Shown piece after piece: positions 26,003-32,237 of a stretch of DNA of 64,000 nt (position 1 is its first letter; every line of letters begins with the position of its first letter). Under the pieces are notes generated by a model that saw only the letters and a program-made list of their open reading frames with translations, was not told the DNA's origin and did no database searches. The position numbers and the translations under genes were made by a program. This stretch comes from Escherichia phage vB_EcoM-G28: the sequence record NC_054916.1; one strand, written 5' to 3'.

Positions 26003-26006
26003 CAAT

Positions 26007-26024
26007 GGGGACCGAAAGGTCCCC
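26007..26024. terminator. Bidirectional stem-loop (GAAA loop) between gene 54 and the convergent early operon
   Basis: ggggacc-gaaa-ggtcccc followed by a T run. Confidence 0.6.
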
Positions 26025-26030
26025 ATATTT

Positions 26031-26321
26031 TTATTTACGGAATGAAATAAAAGCAGCAACTGAAGCAACTAAACTGTCTTCAATATAAACTTCAATTTTT
26101 ACCGGAGCTTCTGACTCAAATTTACCTGTTACTACACCTTGGAAAATGCTTTCAGTCTGTTCTGGCTTTGAAAAATTTTCAGAAGGAAAAATTCCGAACT
26201 TTTTATCTGTTCCAAAAATTTTGATAAATTCATCGTAAACCGCTTCATTAAAAGCGTTATCAGCAGGAATAACGCCTTCAACTACGAGTTCTTGACCTAA
26301 AAAGCGCAAAGAAGATTTCAT
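26031..26321 (-). CDS. Hypothetical early protein (T4 alt.-3 position)
   Basis: 96-aa ORF with its own early promoter module. Confidence 0.6.
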   Translation of the reverse strand: MKSSLRFLGQELVVEGVIPADNAFNEAVYDEFIKIFGTDKKFGIFPSENFSKPEQTESIFQGVVTGKFESEAPVKIEVYIEDSLVASVAAFISFRK

Positions 26322-26328
26322 TTTGTGT

Positions 26329-26382
26329 TCCTCATGTTATGTCAGTAAGATTATTATAACACAACACGAGGGACTTGTAAAC
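26329..26382 (-). promoter_or_regulatory. Early promoter plus leader module (54 bp) identical to the one upstream of alc
   Basis: Minus strand carries GTTTACA, a 17-nt spacer, TATAAT and a GAGGA Shine-Dalgarno; same 54-mer at 41844..41897 and 42195..42248. Confidence 0.6.
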
Positions 26383-28439
26383 TATATTTTGAACTTTTTA
26401 GACATTTCGTTGATGTTAACCAAAGAAGCCAAGATTTGAGAAACTTCGTTTTCCTCTTCTTTTGATTCTTCTACAAGGAATTGATTAAATCCAGCCATTG
26501 GACGAACTTCACCAGTTTCCATTAGATGGTCGCCATCATATACCGATTCTTCTAACTGTTCAGAAGGAGGAACGATTGTGCCTTCGATTAGATACTTGTT
26601 ATAAGCAGTTTCTTTCATCATGTACGTACTCACTTTATTAATCTTCAGCAAAATTCCACGCGGTAGAATAACTTCAGCTTCTGATGGAAATCCTGATAAA
26701 TGACCTGGAACGATAACTTTGATTCGCTCAGCTCCTTTAATTACCATACCCGCGCTAGTTTCAGCATCTTCATTGGCATACGTAGAATGACTGCCCATAT
26801 GCATCAAATCTTCAGCATCAACTGAACCTTCTCCTTCACCAGAAAATACTGTGCCGGAATCATCTAGAGCCATATAGTTTTTACCATACTCACCGAAGAT
26901 ATTTGGTTTAAGCGATGTGGATACGAAGTTCTTGAAGTAGAACATTTTATTTTCAATATTATGACGTAAAGTTTTAAAGGTAACTTCTTGTCCACGGTAA
27001 AGTGTAGTTCCTGGAGGAAGAACTGATCCTTTGGCAAAGGCAGAATCCATTGTCTCGATGTGTTTAATAGCTCGTTCCATATATTCTTCACGGGTAGAAT
27101 CCGGTTTACCTAAAAGGAACGAGTTCATTTCAACATATGAATCTGCACAATAATCTTCAATTACATCAGACTCAGCTTGAGTTAATCCTTTTGGAGTTAC
27201 TTCAGTACTTGCATATTCATACGCTTGAGAAGCAGACTCATTAATCAATTTATAAATGCCATTCATGACAAATTGAACAATAGCTACCTTTTCATCTGGT
27301 GTAGCTTTAGAACCTTTAACTAAATCATTGACGATTTTCTTAATAACATCAAAGCTATTAGAAATATTAATGTCAGCAAGATCACTTAAAATTTTATCAG
27401 TTTTATAATCAAAAAATTCTTTATTCTTTAAATATTCTTGAGAACCTTGATATGATATATCGCTCTGTAACTTGATAGATGGATCACGTAAACGCGCATG
27501 AGCCAATGCAATATGATTTCGGAAGCTTTCTAATTCATAATCGCTAGATTTAAAACGGGAAGCACTTCTCATACCACCGATAGCTCCTTTGCTGAAGTTT
27601 GAACCAACCTGAATAACGCCAGAGTTCATTGGTCCTTCTGCTTTATATACCGGAACTTTAGATTCAAACTCTTGATATTTCTTAGCAGCGAAGCTATCAC
27701 CCTGAAGTGAAGCATCGACAGTAGAATATTGAGCTTGTGCTGCTAATCGACGACTAATTTTAGTTTTCTGAATAACAGCTTGATCCGTACGCTTATCATT
27801 TTCTAAAGCAATAGAAGCAGCAACAGCAACAGCTTTAGGAACAGCATTGCCTGTTTTAACATCTACATAAACATCACCAACCTTTGATTCAACTTTTGTG
27901 AATAACTCAGTTGAAATAGGAGGTACACCTGGAATGTCTTCTAAATTGGCATTTTTACGGTAAACCATAATATATGCATATTTCTTATCATAGTCCCAGA
28001 TTTCCTTTAAAAGAACATATCGACCTGCTCCTTTAGTACGTACTAAACGGTCGGCAATAACTTGCATTTGACGAGCTGCACCGTTTGTTTTACTCTTTAG
28101 TACGCGGAATAAGCATGCGTCAATTTTGTACTGTTTCATTGTCTGAAGAGCAGTATCAAAAACCGCATTAATAACACCAATTGGATTTCCACCCAAGTTT
28201 TTAAGTTTAACGAGCGATAGTTTCTCATTAACACCTATCATTACGATATGCATCATTTTATCGCCTGGCTTAACGTTTTTATTTGTATCACCGCCAGAGG
28301 TGTATGTACAAAATCTAAATCCAGGAAGCACGCTTTCTTCACCGGCTTGAATAGCAAAAATTTGAGGTATTTTATGCTTAGGATTTAAGTTAACAACCGG
28401 CGCCGAAGCGCCGTCAAATAATTCTGTAATAAGTTCCAT
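26382..28439 (-). CDS. Alt-family mono-ADP-ribosyltransferase, paralog 1
   Basis: 685 aa; C-terminal R-S-E signature (LYRG, FVSTSL, EAEVILPRG); N-terminus MELITELFD shared with the neighbouring paralog. Confidence 0.8.
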   Translation of the reverse strand: MELITELFDGASAPVVNLNPKHKIPQIFAIQAGEESVLPGFRFCTYTSGGDTNKNVKPGDKMMHIVMIGVNEKLSLVKLKNLGGNPIGVINAVFDTALQTMKQYKIDACLFRVLKSKTNGAARQMQVIADRLVRTKGAGRYVLLKEIWDYDKKYAYIMVYRKNANLEDIPGVPPISTELFTKVESKVGDVYVDVKTGNAVPKAVAVAASIALENDKRTDQAVIQKTKISRRLAAQAQYSTVDASLQGDSFAAKKYQEFESKVPVYKAEGPMNSGVIQVGSNFSKGAIGGMRSASRFKSSDYELESFRNHIALAHARLRDPSIKLQSDISYQGSQEYLKNKEFFDYKTDKILSDLADINISNSFDVIKKIVNDLVKGSKATPDEKVAIVQFVMNGIYKLINESASQAYEYASTEVTPKGLTQAESDVIEDYCADSYVEMNSFLLGKPDSTREEYMERAIKHIETMDSAFAKGSVLPPGTTLYRGQEVTFKTLRHNIENKMFYFKNFVSTSLKPNIFGEYGKNYMALDDSGTVFSGEGEGSVDAEDLMHMGSHSTYANEDAETSAGMVIKGAERIKVIVPGHLSGFPSEAEVILPRGILLKINKVSTYMMKETAYNKYLIEGTIVPPSEQLEESVYDGDHLMETGEVRPMAGFNQFLVEESKEEENEVSQILASLVNINEMSKKFKI

Positions 28440-28442
28440 GAT

Positions 28443-30539
28443 TTATCCTTGAACGAACTTGTAAGGCATGTTTGTAATATCTATGCAAGACGCAATAATT
28501 CCAAGAGATGATTCTACTTTCTGTTTAACATTTGATGAAACAAATGATGCAAAGTCAACTCTGTCTTCTATTTCAATATCACCTGTCATTGCAATTACTT
28601 CACCAGTTTCCATTAGACGGTCACCGTCATAAATTACTGATTCGGTGAGTTCTTCCGTAGTCATAACTTCAGCTTGAATGAGTTTTGTATTATTAGATGT
28701 TGTTCCGTCATTATTAGAAGCATCAGTTATTTTATTAACTTTGACCATCAATCCGCGTGGTAGAATAACTTCAGCTTCTGTTGCTATTCCGAGACTTCCT
28801 GGATATACAACATTAACTTTATGAGCTCCATCAATTGCCCATCCTATTTGAACTTTAACGTATTCAGGATTTTCTTTATACGCTCTTATTTCGTTTGGAT
28901 TAATAGTTATTCCTTCTTCATTTTTATCAACTGTTAATTCATTACGAGCTTCTGGTTCTAAAAGACCAATGCCAGCATGTGTAATTCCAAAACGCCCAAA
29001 AATGATAGGAGTTAAAGAAGTAGATACAAAATTTCTGAAATAGAACACTTTATTTTTAACTAGCGCTTCGTATATAGGAGCAGTCATACTTTGAGCACGA
29101 TAAACTGTAATGCTTTCTGGTATACGGTCACCGTTTTCAAAAGCTGAATCTAAGTTATTTATAGCAGATTCAATTTCTTTTTCACTCATTACATCATATC
29201 GTTCTGGATTGTAGCGTCCTAAAAGAAGATTATTGATGTCAGTATATCCTGAACCGCAATACTCTCTAATGCCGCGCTTTTGTGATGGAGTATATTTAGA
29301 ACCATCACGGGCAATAGTAATATCAATCATTGGACCTGCACCAATTCCAGAAAAACTATAAATCATTCGTTTGATGAATTTAGTTTTTGCTGCGTTCCAG
29401 GAATTTTTAGTTATTTCTTCCCAGACTTCATCTGGCTGCCCTTTACGAGTTTTATTATGTTTATCAAGCCAAGTATCTTTATATTCTTCAAAGAATTTAT
29501 TAATAGCTGCTGCATACTTCTCTAAACATTTTATTGAAGTAGTTGGTTCATTTTTGATCGCGTTAAAAATTACGTCTTTAATTTTTTCAGAAACTTCATT
29601 AACCTCACTTTTTGAAAAGAATTTATAATCATAGTGAAGTTCATCTGCAGTTCCTTCGGCAATAATTTTTGCTGCTTTAGTTTTAGAAGCTAATGAATTA
29701 ATTCCAAGCTTCATTTCTTCTGCTTCGGGAATTAAAGGAGCGGTAGCAGGTTTATTGAAATTAGCTGCGGTAGATTCATACTTCTGGAATAATTCGCTTT
29801 CAAATCTAGAAGATTCCAATGACTGACTTTGCGCAATTGCTCTACGGGAAATTTTAACTTTAACGATTACAGCTTGGTCAGAACGTTTATCATTTTCTTG
29901 CGCAATAGATGCAGCAATTGCCTCATTTTTAGTTACTTGAGCTCCAGTATCTTTATTGATATAAACATCGCCGACTTTCGATTCAACTTTAGTAAAGAGC
30001 TCGGTACTAATTTCCGGAACTCCTGGAATGTCTTCTAGTGATACATTTTTGCGATGTATAAGAATATATGCATACTTTTTATCATAATCCCAGAGTTCCT
30101 TAAGAAGGACGTATCTGCCACCTGAACGACTACGGATAAGTCTATCAGCAATAACTTGAATTTGTTGAGCTTGACCAGCAGTTTTAGACTTAAGAATACG
30201 GAGCATACAGGCATCAATTTTATACTGACGCATCGTCTGCATTGCAACAGTAAAAACTGAATTGATATAATTAATTGGGCTTGGACCAAGACCTTTTAAT
30301 TTGGCAATTGAACCTTTAGCAGTTAATGTAAAAGGAACAATATGCATCATTTTATCGCCCATTTTTAAATCGCGATTAGTATCACCTCCAGATGTATAGG
30401 TACATAAACGAAAGCCCGGTTGTTCAATTGCATCATCAACGTGAACTGAAAAAATTTGTGGTATTTTCTTCTTTGGATTTAAGTTTGTAATCGGAAGAGT
30501 AGTATCTTCGTCAAATAATTCTGTAATGAGTTCCATCAT
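28443..30539 (-). CDS. alt: Alt-family mono-ADP-ribosyltransferase, paralog 2 (gene adjacent to the ligase side)
   Basis: 698 aa; C-terminal R-S-E signature (VYRAQ, FVSTSL, EAEVILPRG); position upstream of gene 30 cluster. Confidence 0.8.
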   Translation of the reverse strand: MMELITELFDEDTTLPITNLNPKKKIPQIFSVHVDDAIEQPGFRLCTYTSGGDTNRDLKMGDKMMHIVPFTLTAKGSIAKLKGLGPSPINYINSVFTVAMQTMRQYKIDACMLRILKSKTAGQAQQIQVIADRLIRSRSGGRYVLLKELWDYDKKYAYILIHRKNVSLEDIPGVPEISTELFTKVESKVGDVYINKDTGAQVTKNEAIAASIAQENDKRSDQAVIVKVKISRRAIAQSQSLESSRFESELFQKYESTAANFNKPATAPLIPEAEEMKLGINSLASKTKAAKIIAEGTADELHYDYKFFSKSEVNEVSEKIKDVIFNAIKNEPTTSIKCLEKYAAAINKFFEEYKDTWLDKHNKTRKGQPDEVWEEITKNSWNAAKTKFIKRMIYSFSGIGAGPMIDITIARDGSKYTPSQKRGIREYCGSGYTDINNLLLGRYNPERYDVMSEKEIESAINNLDSAFENGDRIPESITVYRAQSMTAPIYEALVKNKVFYFRNFVSTSLTPIIFGRFGITHAGIGLLEPEARNELTVDKNEEGITINPNEIRAYKENPEYVKVQIGWAIDGAHKVNVVYPGSLGIATEAEVILPRGLMVKVNKITDASNNDGTTSNNTKLIQAEVMTTEELTESVIYDGDRLMETGEVIAMTGDIEIEDRVDFASFVSSNVKQKVESSLGIIASCIDITNMPYKFVQG

Positions 30540-30574
30540 ATCCTCTCTAGTGTTTATTCTATTTATAAAATTAA

Positions 30575-30588
30575 AGGCCCGAAGGCCT
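30575..30588 (-). terminator. Stem-loop between the 62-aa ORF and the alt genes
   Basis: aggcc-cgaa-ggcct. Confidence 0.4.
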
Positions 30589-30777
30589 TTAATAATCTAT
30601 TGGTAAGAGAGTACGATATATTTCAAACTTTGGACCTTTTTCATAAGCATCAAAAGTTTCTGTGAATTTATTATAAGCATATGCATCTATAAATTCAATC
30701 ATGATTTGTGATACAGAAGTAGAAACATCTCCACCTTCTTTTTGAGCCACGACAATTGTTTCTAAGTAAGCTTTCAT
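30589..30777 (-). CDS. Hypothetical 62-aa protein
   Basis: ORF overlapping the gene 30 stop. Confidence 0.45.
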   Translation of the reverse strand: MKAYLETIVVAQKEGGDVSTSVSQIMIEFIDAYAYNKFTETFDAYEKGPKFEIYRTLLPIDY

Positions 30778-32237
30778 AAACCAGTTACCTCATGAAAATC
30801 ACCAAATACATCTTCGAATGTATTAGCTTTAGTTTTATCTTCGCGTAAACGAATCGCAATCGGAAGAAATAATTTAACGTAATCAGTGCGGCCATCAGAT
30901 TTTAACCAACCGTTGCATTCGCACTCTAGAATTTTTCCAATATAATAATTTTGGTTTTCCATAATGCGAGTACGGTCAAGTTCATGCGATTTTACACCGG
31001 CTTTATCTTTTAAGCCTGAACCAGCATTTACTTTAATTTTTCCACACTCTGACTCAAGAATAAATCCACCTGCTTTAGTAGGGTCTTTACGGTGAGGATA
31101 AATTCCTACAATTTTTAAATCAACATCAATTACTTCTTTAAATTTATAGAGATTTTTTGAACGAGCATTTTCCCATAATCCATCGATATTTTTGAGAATA
31201 ATACCTTCAAGACCTTGGTCAATATACTTTTTATAAATTACCTTAGCTTCATCTAGGTTATTTACTACCTGGTTTTCAATTAAAATTACTTTATCATATC
31301 CAGATGTCATTTGTTCTAGTTTAGAAAAACGTACATCATATTTCAAACGAAATGCAGGAAGACCGTATATTTCTACCAACGGTACATAATCCCAGACCTG
31401 AAACTTCATGCATTGAGCTTCTTTTTCAGAAATGGTTCCTTTTAAGGATTTATTGGCGATTCCATTAGAAGTAGTACGAGATTCCGCTACTTCGGCGAAT
31501 TCTTTAGCTTTACTAATTTCAGGATAAGCATCAAAAAGAAAATCTAGTCCTTCTGGTTCCTTTTTAACTTGCTCATGGTATACCAATTCGCCATCAATTA
31601 ACACACCTTCTGGATGAATCTGGCGGGCTTCAGCAGTCATTTTGATTAACTCTTCCTTAAGAAGATCTAATCCTAGATATTCATTACCAGCTCGCGATAA
31701 AAGACGAACATCATCTAATTCATCGCCTCGGACTTCAGCAAAACACCGAGCTCCATCTGCTTTTAACTGCGCAAAAGCTGGAAACTTGATATTCTTACTA
31801 ATGCCTTTTTCATCATAAGAACTTGCCAGCATTTGAGGTTGTTCAGGAATTAAACCCGGCCAAACTTTGTTTGCAATAGATACTGAAGCACCACATTCAA
31901 GGTCTCGCATCATAACTCGACGCAAAACTTCAACATCATCCTTTTTACCATCGGTGATATATCCAGTTAATTCCTCAATTGCTGCATTGCCAGTTAATTT
32001 CCGAGTAGCTAACGTGAATTCAATGAAGTCAAGCATATCGGTAATAGTCAGCATTCCAAAACTCTGGGTAGCAATACCAGGTTTAGGCCATTTCTTGATA
32101 TAATACTGTAACCCACGAGAATAAGTCAGACGATATACTCGTTTAAGCAATTCATTATCTTTATTCTTTTCAAGAATTGCTTGCTTCTGTTTAGTTGATC
32201 CAATAGATGCTATTTCATTCAGAATTTTAAGAATCAT
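30774..32237 (-). CDS. 30: ATP-dependent DNA ligase gp30
   Basis: 487 aa; KADGAR adenylation motif; size as T4 DNA ligase. Confidence 0.95.
   Translation of the reverse strand: MILKILNEIASIGSTKQKQAILEKNKDNELLKRVYRLTYSRGLQYYIKKWPKPGIATQSFGMLTITDMLDFIEFTLATRKLTGNAAIEELTGYITDGKKDDVEVLRRVMMRDLECGASVSIANKVWPGLIPEQPQMLASSYDEKGISKNIKFPAFAQLKADGARCFAEVRGDELDDVRLLSRAGNEYLGLDLLKEELIKMTAEARQIHPEGVLIDGELVYHEQVKKEPEGLDFLFDAYPEISKAKEFAEVAESRTTSNGIANKSLKGTISEKEAQCMKFQVWDYVPLVEIYGLPAFRLKYDVRFSKLEQMTSGYDKVILIENQVVNNLDEAKVIYKKYIDQGLEGIILKNIDGLWENARSKNLYKFKEVIDVDLKIVGIYPHRKDPTKAGGFILESECGKIKVNAGSGLKDKAGVKSHELDRTRIMENQNYYIGKILECECNGWLKSDGRTDYVKLFLPIAIRLREDKTKANTFEDVFGDFHEVTGL

Follow-up and report, generated by a model that had tools for sequence, protein, structure and literature searches.

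In the 64,000-nucleotide (nt) stretch of the Escherichia phage vB_EcoM-G28 genome analysed here (NC_054916.1; the window), two long open reading frames (ORFs) related to alt, the ADP-ribosyltransferase (ART) gene of phage T4, follow each other on the minus strand. The locus raises the question of whether such a phage has two working Alt enzymes and, if so, whether the second has a role of its own. We confirm that the tandem pair is real and that both ORFs encode full-length Alt-family paralogs, here called AltA (upstream) and AltB (downstream). We consider it probable, with reasonably good confidence, that the two are co-expressed, head-packaged and injected arginine-specific mono-ADP-ribosyltransferases with different recognition regions. 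The window is a segment of a Tequatrovirus (T4/T6-like) genome, and the tandem pair is an ordinary, already annotated feature of Tequatrovirus and its relatives. The arrangement was already known, from annotation in hundreds of genomes and from Nolan 2006 (PMC1524935); the result added here is a modular pattern of cassette exchange.

Two intact alt genes with complete catalytic signatures

The pair and its junction are laid out as follows.

28443..30539, minus strand: AltA, the upstream Alt paralog; 698 amino acids (aa) from the first ATG, 697 aa from the probable start at 30536
26382..28439, minus strand: AltB, the downstream Alt paralog; an ORF of 685 aa
28437..28450, minus strand: gene junction, with the Shine-Dalgarno sequence AAGGA at 28450-28446, TAA at 28445-28443, the 3-nt spacer atc and ATG at 28439-28437

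An earlier note on this DNA had described two adjacent ORFs of 685 and 698 aa, 3 bp apart, with ~230 common N-terminal residues and a MELITELFD start. The ORF listing and the TAA-atc-ATG junction bear this out, and the common part amounts to 67% identity over residues 1-238. Neither gene has a frameshift or an internal stop. Both proteins start with MELITELFD, the 698-aa ORF carrying one additional Met. Only 2 nt separate the GAGG Shine-Dalgarno sequence of AltA from the first ATG, against 5 nt for the second (30536). Because this spacing favours the second ATG and the MELITELFD start is the one annotated for alt in T4, RB32 and T6, the second ATG is the likelier start and the AltA product is likely 697 aa long.

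The same note had assigned both ORFs to the Alt type, and the family searches agree. PHROG 802, "Alt-like RNA polymerase ADP-ribosyltransferase", covers both proteins end to end (AltB residues 1-684, E=2e-254; AltA residues 1-696, E=1.6e-270). The Pfam family PF03496 (ADPrib_exo_Tox) is matched by AltA at 129.5 bits (E=1.3e-37) and by AltB at 72.5 bits (E=3.9e-20, residues 416-620), both above the gathering score of 23.4. AltB also matches PHROGs 23015 and 15247, the families of T4 alt.-1 and alt.-2, at residues 1-56 and 62-117, and no NCBIfam model matches either protein. Precomputed annotations assign PF26846 (Tevenvirinae_ADPRT) together with PF03496 to AltB proteins 95-98% identical to this one and to the 697-aa cluster of AltA length. 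The R / S-T-S / E-x-E signature was located by alignment with T4 Alt, ModA and ModB.

26565..27194, minus strand: AltB ART domain, residues 416-625 (Pfam match and alignment)
26994-26996, 26913-26921 and 26673-26681, minus strand: AltB catalytic codons for R482, S507-T-S509 and E587-A-E589 (alignment)
29097-29099, 29016-29024 and 28770-28778, minus strand: AltA catalytic codons for R480, S505-T-S507 and E587-A-E589 (alignment)

The signature is intact in both copies, as first noted. Its equivalents in T4 Alt are R478, S503-S505 and E574-E576. The catalytic residues are invariant across a 20-sequence alignment and are kept in 57-58 of 60 diverse family representatives, whose mutual identity is under 50%. 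C3 enzymes use Q-x-E and modify asparagine; by analogy, the Glu-x-Glu of AltA and AltB predicts arginine-specific mono-ADP-ribosylation. In an AlphaFold2 model of AltB (mean predicted local distance difference test score, pLDDT, 73; ART core ~70-90), an alpha/beta N-domain is followed by a helical middle region, the ART core and a disordered C-terminus.

A point of numbering concerns the T4 protein. Its catalytic-dead mutant is named Alt E577A in the literature (PMC11404850); in the NC_000866 translation of T4 Alt (L001 5455-7503, minus strand) the two glutamates of E-x-E are E574 and E576 and position 577 is a Val, so that the numbering is off by one.

AltB is maintained by selection and survives in T4 as a wreck

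The earlier note left open whether T4 has the same arrangement. It does not: downstream of the T4 alt gene (682 aa) lie two small ORFs, alt.-1 (61 aa; NP_049810) and alt.-2 (67 aa; NP_049809), a frameshifted and deleted remnant that adjoins alt directly, in the same position as AltB. AltB residues 1-56 and 62-116 match these ORFs at 95% and 98% identity, respectively. Base-level alignment revealed a -1 frameshift near codon 55, within a run of A residues, and a deletion of ~1.69 kb between imperfect 9-bp repeats, CTAAA(G/A)AGT, which removed everything after codon ~116, and the remnant retains no catalytic domain. The T4 record calls alt.-1 and alt.-2 an old duplication of the initial portion of alt. 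From the frameshift and the deletion we conclude that they are the wreck of a full-length second paralog, of which AltB is the intact form.

Two intact alt genes are the usual state in the group, to which laboratory T4 is the degenerate exception. A megablast search with the 4.8-kb two-gene region matched 540 phage records, 355 of which match at least 80% of its length at 90-99% identity. With AltB, tblastn matched ~397 phage records at at least 90% identity and ~395, full length, at at least 95%; such record counts are approximate, as the database holds GenBank/RefSeq duplicates. GenBank phage records were used instead of IMG/VR, where a scan had given only 5 loci, too few for population analysis. 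Two intact genes are also present in T6, RB32, AR1 and ZN18, and RefSeq labels both genes "Alt-like RNA polymerase ADP-ribosyltransferase".

Tandem paralogs can mis-assemble, and the pair might in principle be an assembly or annotation artefact, that is, a collapsed or duplicated repeat. Nothing specific speaks for this here. AltA and AltB have no exact DNA stretch longer than 20-22 nt in common, and the arrangement recurs in hundreds of independently sequenced isolates, T6, RB32 and AR1 among them. We reject an artefact as having practically no chance of being the explanation.

A second possibility is that AltB is a decaying or catalytically dead duplicate without a function of its own, like the T4 remnant. 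The viability of T4 with that remnant, the existence of isolates with a single hybrid gene and the non-essential nature of Alt itself (PMC9026906) would all fit such decay. However, the 685-codon frame of AltB is intact, R482, S507, S509, E587 and E589 are all present, and the single hybrids retain the AltB catalytic cassette and drop that of AltA. The ratio of nonsynonymous to synonymous substitution rates (dN/dS), calculated by the Nei-Gojobori method for eight phages, is 0.009-0.088 for AltB at dS 0.07-0.25, and AltB is conserved at 95-99% identity across ~400 phages. AltB is thus under strong purifying selection, and these dN/dS values rule out a pseudogene. The two observations that the earlier note had named as telling against its own reading of two intact paralogs, loss of catalytic residues from one copy and a frameshifted pseudogene, were both looked for, and neither is seen. 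We therefore rejected decay, which we regard as very improbable.

For AltA, dN/dS is 0.03-0.09 within one allele class, and dN reaches ~0.2 between its two classes, the 697-aa T6/RB32 type present here and the 682-685-aa T4/AR1 type. At a tblastn identity of at least 90%, the T6-type AltA cassette is found in ~317 records and the T4 type in ~175, and AltB co-occurs with either.

Shigella phage sb4 (L011, PQ666542) was excluded from the dN/dS analysis. Both of its alt genes and gp48 are split into short coding sequences, though ~96% identical to intact genes, and the splits are probably sequencing or assembly indel errors sooner than real pseudogenes.

A probable late operon with a junction that fits coupling

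On the minus strand, the order of genes is gene 30 (DNA ligase, 30774-32237), alt.1 (30589-30777), the 698-aa ORF, the 685-aa ORF and alt.-3 (26031-26321). AltA and AltB thus occupy the position expected for alt, flanked by gene 30/alt.1 and alt.-3/gene 54 and preceded by a late promoter. Two signals precede AltA.

30560..30567, minus strand: T4-type late promoter box TATAAATA, upstream of AltA (sequence match)
30573..30590, minus strand: GC-rich, terminator-like hairpin AAAGGCCTTCGGGCCTTT, overlapping the alt.1 stop codon (read from the sequence)

Apart from the box at 30567-30560, no late box lies in the interval from the upstream hairpin to the start of AltA. Hairpins of the same type upstream of alt, each followed by a similar [C/T]ATAAATA box, also occur in JS10, MX01 and SP18, and a conserved terminator upstream of alt has been described (Nolan 2006, PMC1524935). 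From its sequence, the hairpin is a candidate terminator-like element that would insulate the alt operon against early transcription arriving from upstream.

The AltA-AltB junction contains no separate promoter for AltB. Matches to sigma-70-type promoters were no commoner than in shuffled sequences (14 versus 18.8), and therefore none was accepted as an internal AltB promoter. The AAGGA sequence of AltB lies within the final AltA codons, 6 nt upstream of the AltB ATG. This layout fits co-transcription and translational coupling of AltA and AltB. The TAA-atc-ATG junction is identical in T4, and stop codon, 3 nt and ATG follow one another in the same way in JS10 and at both MX01 junctions.

A second exact TATAAATA box lies at 29156-29163 on the minus strand, inside the AltA coding region and ~720 nt upstream of the AltB start. 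Chance may account for it, or it could be a late promoter giving AltB some independent expression; in the window, 19 late-promoter boxes were observed against 9 expected.

The surrounding genes carry signals of their own. Genes 54 and 48, on the plus strand, converge on the minus-strand alt block; alt.1 matches Pfam Phage_blade and alt.-3 matches DUF5498. A near-consensus sigma-70/T4-early-type promoter (26353-26381, minus strand) begins at the AltB stop codon, upstream of alt.-3. With TTTACA, a 17-nt spacer, TATAAT and an upstream TG, it has 11 of 12 matches and is plausible for alt.-3 only. Because of this promoter, alt.-3 is probably an early gene, controlled apart from the late alt operon. 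T4 mutants with a C-terminally extended Alt.-3 evade the CmdTAC defence system (PMC11618068). A GC-rich hairpin with a perfect 9-bp stem (26005-26026, both strands), lying where genes 54 and alt.-3 converge, looks like a bidirectional terminator.

Predicted packaging and processing of AltB

The ends of both proteins carry the features expected of a processed prohead protein; a slash marks the presumed cut.

27726..28439, minus strand: AltB N-terminal domain, residues 1-238, with the MELITE/LFD prohead-protease site (E6 at 28422-28424)
29823..30536, minus strand: AltA N-terminal domain, residues 1-238, with the MELITE/LFD site; 99% identical to the T4 Alt N-domain
26385..26549, minus strand: AltB C-terminal cleavage site L629-E-E631/S (E631 at 26547-26549) and presumed propeptide, residues 632-685 (alignment)
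28446..28643, minus strand: AltA C-terminal cleavage site L630-T-E632/S (E632 at 28641-28643) and propeptide, residues 633-697 (alignment)

T4 Alt is a prohead-core protein of ~40 copies (PMC9958956, PMC9026906), which gp21 cleaves at ITE-6 and LTE-619 (PMC5694885). Motifs of the gp21 type are kept in both paralogs, I4-T-E6 and the site at E631 in AltB and ITE6 and LTE632 in AltA, and cleavage is predicted at each. The C-terminal motifs, LEE631 and LTE632, align with LTE-619, and the C-terminal region of AltA is 93% identical to that of T4 Alt. The presumed AltB propeptide contains a YDGDHLMETGEV motif and is disordered in the AlphaFold2 model. Among the 60 representatives, E6 and E631 are each present in 57, and L, I, M or V occupies position -2 in 56. 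Mature proteins of ~69 kDa (AltB, residues 7-631) and ~70 kDa (AltA, residues 7-632) are predicted.

The model of the AltB N-domain has a pLDDT of 84 and a predicted template modelling score of 0.82. The domain, which corresponds to PF26846, belongs to a narrowly distributed family, with 69 representatives among 1.84 billion proteins. Full-length matches (600-712 aa) carry the domain at the N-terminus only, the remaining matches are short fragments, and 58 of the 60 representatives carry PF03496. It is restricted to the N-terminal part of ART proteins from T4-like phages. By analogy with T4 Alt, we infer that AltB is packaged, cleaved by gp21 and injected.

Alternatively, AltB might be active yet unpackaged and act late inside the producing cell, as the unpackaged ModA and ModB act early. 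The predicted late transcription would be compatible with this, and the literature searches found no virion proteomics for AltB. However, AltB keeps the full N-domain and both gp21-type motifs, and ModA and ModB entirely lack the N-domain and the C-terminal propeptide. We consider an unpackaged AltB improbable and favour its delivery from the head.

When the AltB N-domain model (27720-28439) was compared with BFVD, Alt homologs were matched strongly. Weak matches also recurred (E=1e-7 to 1e-4, template modelling (TM) score ~0.5, 12-17% identity) to the N-terminal parts of large uncharacterised proteins from unrelated myophages, including phiEa2809, RC-2014, MK-13, VP-1, Kuja and Atu_ph07. Zeta-toxin, deaminase or ParB/Srx domains are annotated in some of them. 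To judge by these weak matches, the fold of the Alt N-domain may be a general head-packaging module used for other effector types in unrelated myophages.

Divergence between the paralogs suggests different targets

AltA and AltB align over their full length (BLASTP, E=9e-162, 41% identity). Identity falls from 67% in the N-domain to ~15% in the middle region (residues 239-415); it is 35% for the catalytic domain and 42% for the C-terminal tail. The middle regions thus differ, as the earlier note reported.

27195..27725, minus strand: AltB middle helical region, residues 239-415 (paralog-specific; all-helical in the AlphaFold2 model, pLDDT ~80-90)

This region is presumed to be the substrate-recognition part of AltB. 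Because it and the loop from S-T-S to E-x-E are unrelated in the two paralogs, we infer that AltA and AltB have different, perhaps overlapping, host targets. Identity to the ART domain of T4 Alt is 65% for AltA and 35% for AltB, and each alt copy is closer to its counterparts in other genera than to the paralog next to it.

Within AltB residues 577-589 (26673-26711), an aromatic residue, F583, lies in PGHLSGFPSEAE, four residues ahead of E-x-E. No aromatic residue occupies this position in AltA (PGSLGIATEAE) or T4 Alt (GGSLAPSNEME). In C3-like enzymes, the loop before the catalytic Glu helps substrate recognition, and by this analogy F583 may be linked to different targets of AltB.

A functional AltB could nevertheless be redundant with AltA, modifying the same targets, RNA polymerase alpha and others, either to raise the dose or to stand in for a copy blocked by a host factor. 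The two paralogs have in common their catalytic family, the E-x-E arginine signature, the predicted packaging signals and the operon. T4 Alt ADP-ribosylates the RNA polymerase alpha subunit (PMC5512222, PMC9958956), and, according to Depping 2005 as cited in PMC5512222, it modifies many host proteins, so that specificity may be loose. Against redundancy stand the low identities of the middle region and the ART domain, the conservation of AltB across so many phages, and the fact that each cassette type forms a distinct lineage across genera. Because AltB is conserved and the cassette types are kept distinct, separate selected functions fit better, and we regard redundancy as unlikely, though worth keeping in mind. 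Distinct target sets for AltA and AltB are the reading we carry forward.

Exchange of catalytic cassettes across genera

The variable part of AltA is bounded by the N-domain and the C-terminal cleavage site.

28653..29816, minus strand: AltA variable cassette (middle region plus ART), residues 241-628, of the T6/RB32 type

At the DNA level, AltA is 96-100% identical to T4 alt before residue 241 and 88-100% after residue 629, and 41-79% between them. The AltA and T4 Alt proteins are correspondingly 99% identical in the N-domain, 31% in the middle region and 65% in the ART domain. The reverse pattern is seen with copy 1 of Dhakavirus JS10, where DNA identity is 40-63% in the N-domain, 84-96% over residues 419-628 and 49-64% after residue 629. 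Because neighbouring genes of the window and JS10 are only 64-67% identical, the ART similarity indicates that the cassette moved between genera.

Protein comparisons give the same picture. AltA and copy 1 of JS10 or MX01 are 46% identical in the N-domain, 66-68% in the middle region and 94-95% in the ART domain; for AltB and copy 2 of JS10 or copy 3 of MX01, the values are 45%, 44-46% and 55-56%. N-domain identity between AltA or AltB and the Dhakavirus copies in general is 42-46%. The cassette of MX01 copy 2 is of the SP18 altb type (86% and 76% identity). The N-domain and C-terminal propeptide thus follow the phage lineage, whereas the middle-plus-ART cassette groups by type across genera, with apparent exchange boundaries near the end of the N-domain and the C-terminal cleavage site. 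In Escherichia phage MX01 (L016 864-7124), the three Alt paralogs stand in a row with identical junctions of stop codon, 3 nt and ATG.

Hybrid genes provide a second view of recombination at this locus. The database proteins P0003, P0004, P0006 and P0007 are AltB with the first 53, 108, 190 and 222 residues, respectively, swapped for AltA sequence. The contigs of P0003 and P0007 have a single alt gene downstream of alt.1, and that of P0003 reaches alt.-3. A single in-frame AltA-N/AltB hybrid is present in metagenomic contigs and also in the isolates ECML-134, SCS4 and Yersinia phage PST.

L018 5001-7061, L019 5001-7061 and L020 2501-4561 (ECML-134): single hybrid alt genes, an AltA N-segment joined to the rest of AltB

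Because AltA and AltB lack long exact matches, k-mer assembly is an unlikely source of these hybrids. Unequal recombination between the two adjacent N-domains seems to have produced them, and such a process would explain the variation in alt copy number. As ECML-134, SCS4 and PST have collapsed both genes into one, two copies are not obligatory.

These observations suggest a broader view, in which the alt locus is an array of exchangeable injected effectors. A constant frame of N-domain and propeptide would serve for packaging and processing, and cassettes would be recombined into it at the domain boundaries, also between genera. AltB would then be another injected enzyme that acts on host targets of its own, possibly in counter-defence. 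The identity of the AltA and JS10 ART segments relative to neighbouring genes and the copy number of one to three, through N-domain recombination, speak for it. We put it forward tentatively, at somewhat less than an even chance.

A working model for two injected Alt enzymes

In the mechanism that we propose, the single late promoter at 30567-30560, just after the terminator hairpin, would drive AltA and then AltB. The two proteins would be made together late in infection because the AltB ATG lies 3 nt past the AltA stop and has its own AAGGA. Each consists of four modules: a lineage-specific N-domain of ~238 aa with MELITE/LFD, a helical middle region, an ART domain of the C3/VIP2 type and a propeptide after L-x-E. 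By analogy with T4 Alt, both would be built into the prohead core, trimmed by gp21 at both ends and retained in the head. After injection with the DNA, they would use NAD+ to mono-ADP-ribosylate arginines of host proteins ahead of all phage gene expression, AltA and AltB acting on different, possibly overlapping, sets of proteins.

Several points weigh against this model. T4 grows well with AltB destroyed and T4 Alt itself is non-essential (PMC9026906), and any role of AltB is therefore conditional. Three isolates, ECML-134, SCS4 and PST, manage with one hybrid in place of two alt genes. The Pfam score of AltB is below that of AltA, its loop from S-T-S to E-x-E is modelled at low confidence, and the argument for distinct substrate sets is one from sequence divergence. 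The literature searched contains no direct evidence of AltB in virions, or of its cleavage, injection or enzymatic activity. Nor was a functional study of the second Alt paralog found there, the mentions being Nolan 2006 and genome-annotation notes.

Nearly all knowledge of injected phage ADP-ribosyltransferases comes from laboratory T4, with its one Alt and wrecked second copy, whereas most sequenced relatives, T6 included, encode two intact Alt enzymes. T4-based work would have missed AltB because laboratory T4 lost the gene, and the conservation of AltB in hundreds of isolates suggests a selected role that is invisible to T4 experiments. If AltB modifies other host proteins in the first seconds of infection, the host-takeover or anti-defence repertoire of therapeutic T4-like phages would be wider. 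The exchange of catalytic cassettes, if true, would be a phage parallel to polymorphic toxin systems.

Comparison with known systems

The closest solved folds to the AltB catalytic domain are those of bacterial toxins. A PDB sequence search with AltB gave no match at E<=0.01, and we take it from this that no Alt structure has been solved. A Foldseek search of the PDB with the AltB model gave 74 matches at E<=0.001, headed by Vis, C3bot, CDTa, the iota-like toxin and VIP2 (E=6e-7 to 1e-4). They have the R-S-E layout in common with AltB, with a TM score of ~0.6 on the target; however, their identity to AltB is only 15-21%, and they are secreted bacterial toxins, not phage head proteins.

T4 ModA and ModB belong to the same R-S-E ART clade as AltA and AltB, and their R, S-x-S and E-x-E motifs align. 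They are ~200 aa long, expressed early and unpackaged (PMC5512222), and, unlike AltA and AltB, they also lack the middle region.

T4 alt (NP_049811) is the positional counterpart of AltA, which is its ortholog between alt.1/gene 30 and alt.-3/gene 54, with 69.5% identity. AltA resembles T4 Alt in its catalytic signature, late promoter and both gp21 cleavage motifs, and differs in residues 241-628, which are a different allele. AltB shares the four-module architecture of T4 Alt but is only 41% identical to it overall, and T4 has no intact counterpart of AltB.

Tandem Alt arrays stand head-to-tail at the same locus in other genera, with two copies in Dhakavirus JS10, three in MX01 and alta/altb in Gaprivervirus SP18, and R/S-x-S/E-x-E is intact in every copy. 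Duplications of alt had been reported by Nolan 2006 (PMC1524935), among them T4 alt.-1/alt.-2 and the full-length copy of Aeromonas phage 44RR (ORF187c). The nearest systems are those of T6 (AP018814, EcT6_00198/00197) and RB32 (DQ904452, RB32ORF195c/194c), where two genes of 697 and 685 aa have the same 3-nt spacing as here. The AltB of RB32 is 97.5% identical to the one here, and the alt cassettes of T6 (X69894) and RB32 match that of AltA at 97.7-97.9% identity. In those records the second gene is annotated as a "hypothetical protein" or, in RB32, as an "apparent insertion in alt.-2; similar to alt"; between the tandem alt genes of T6 and RB32 and the AltA-AltB pair described here there is no substantive difference.

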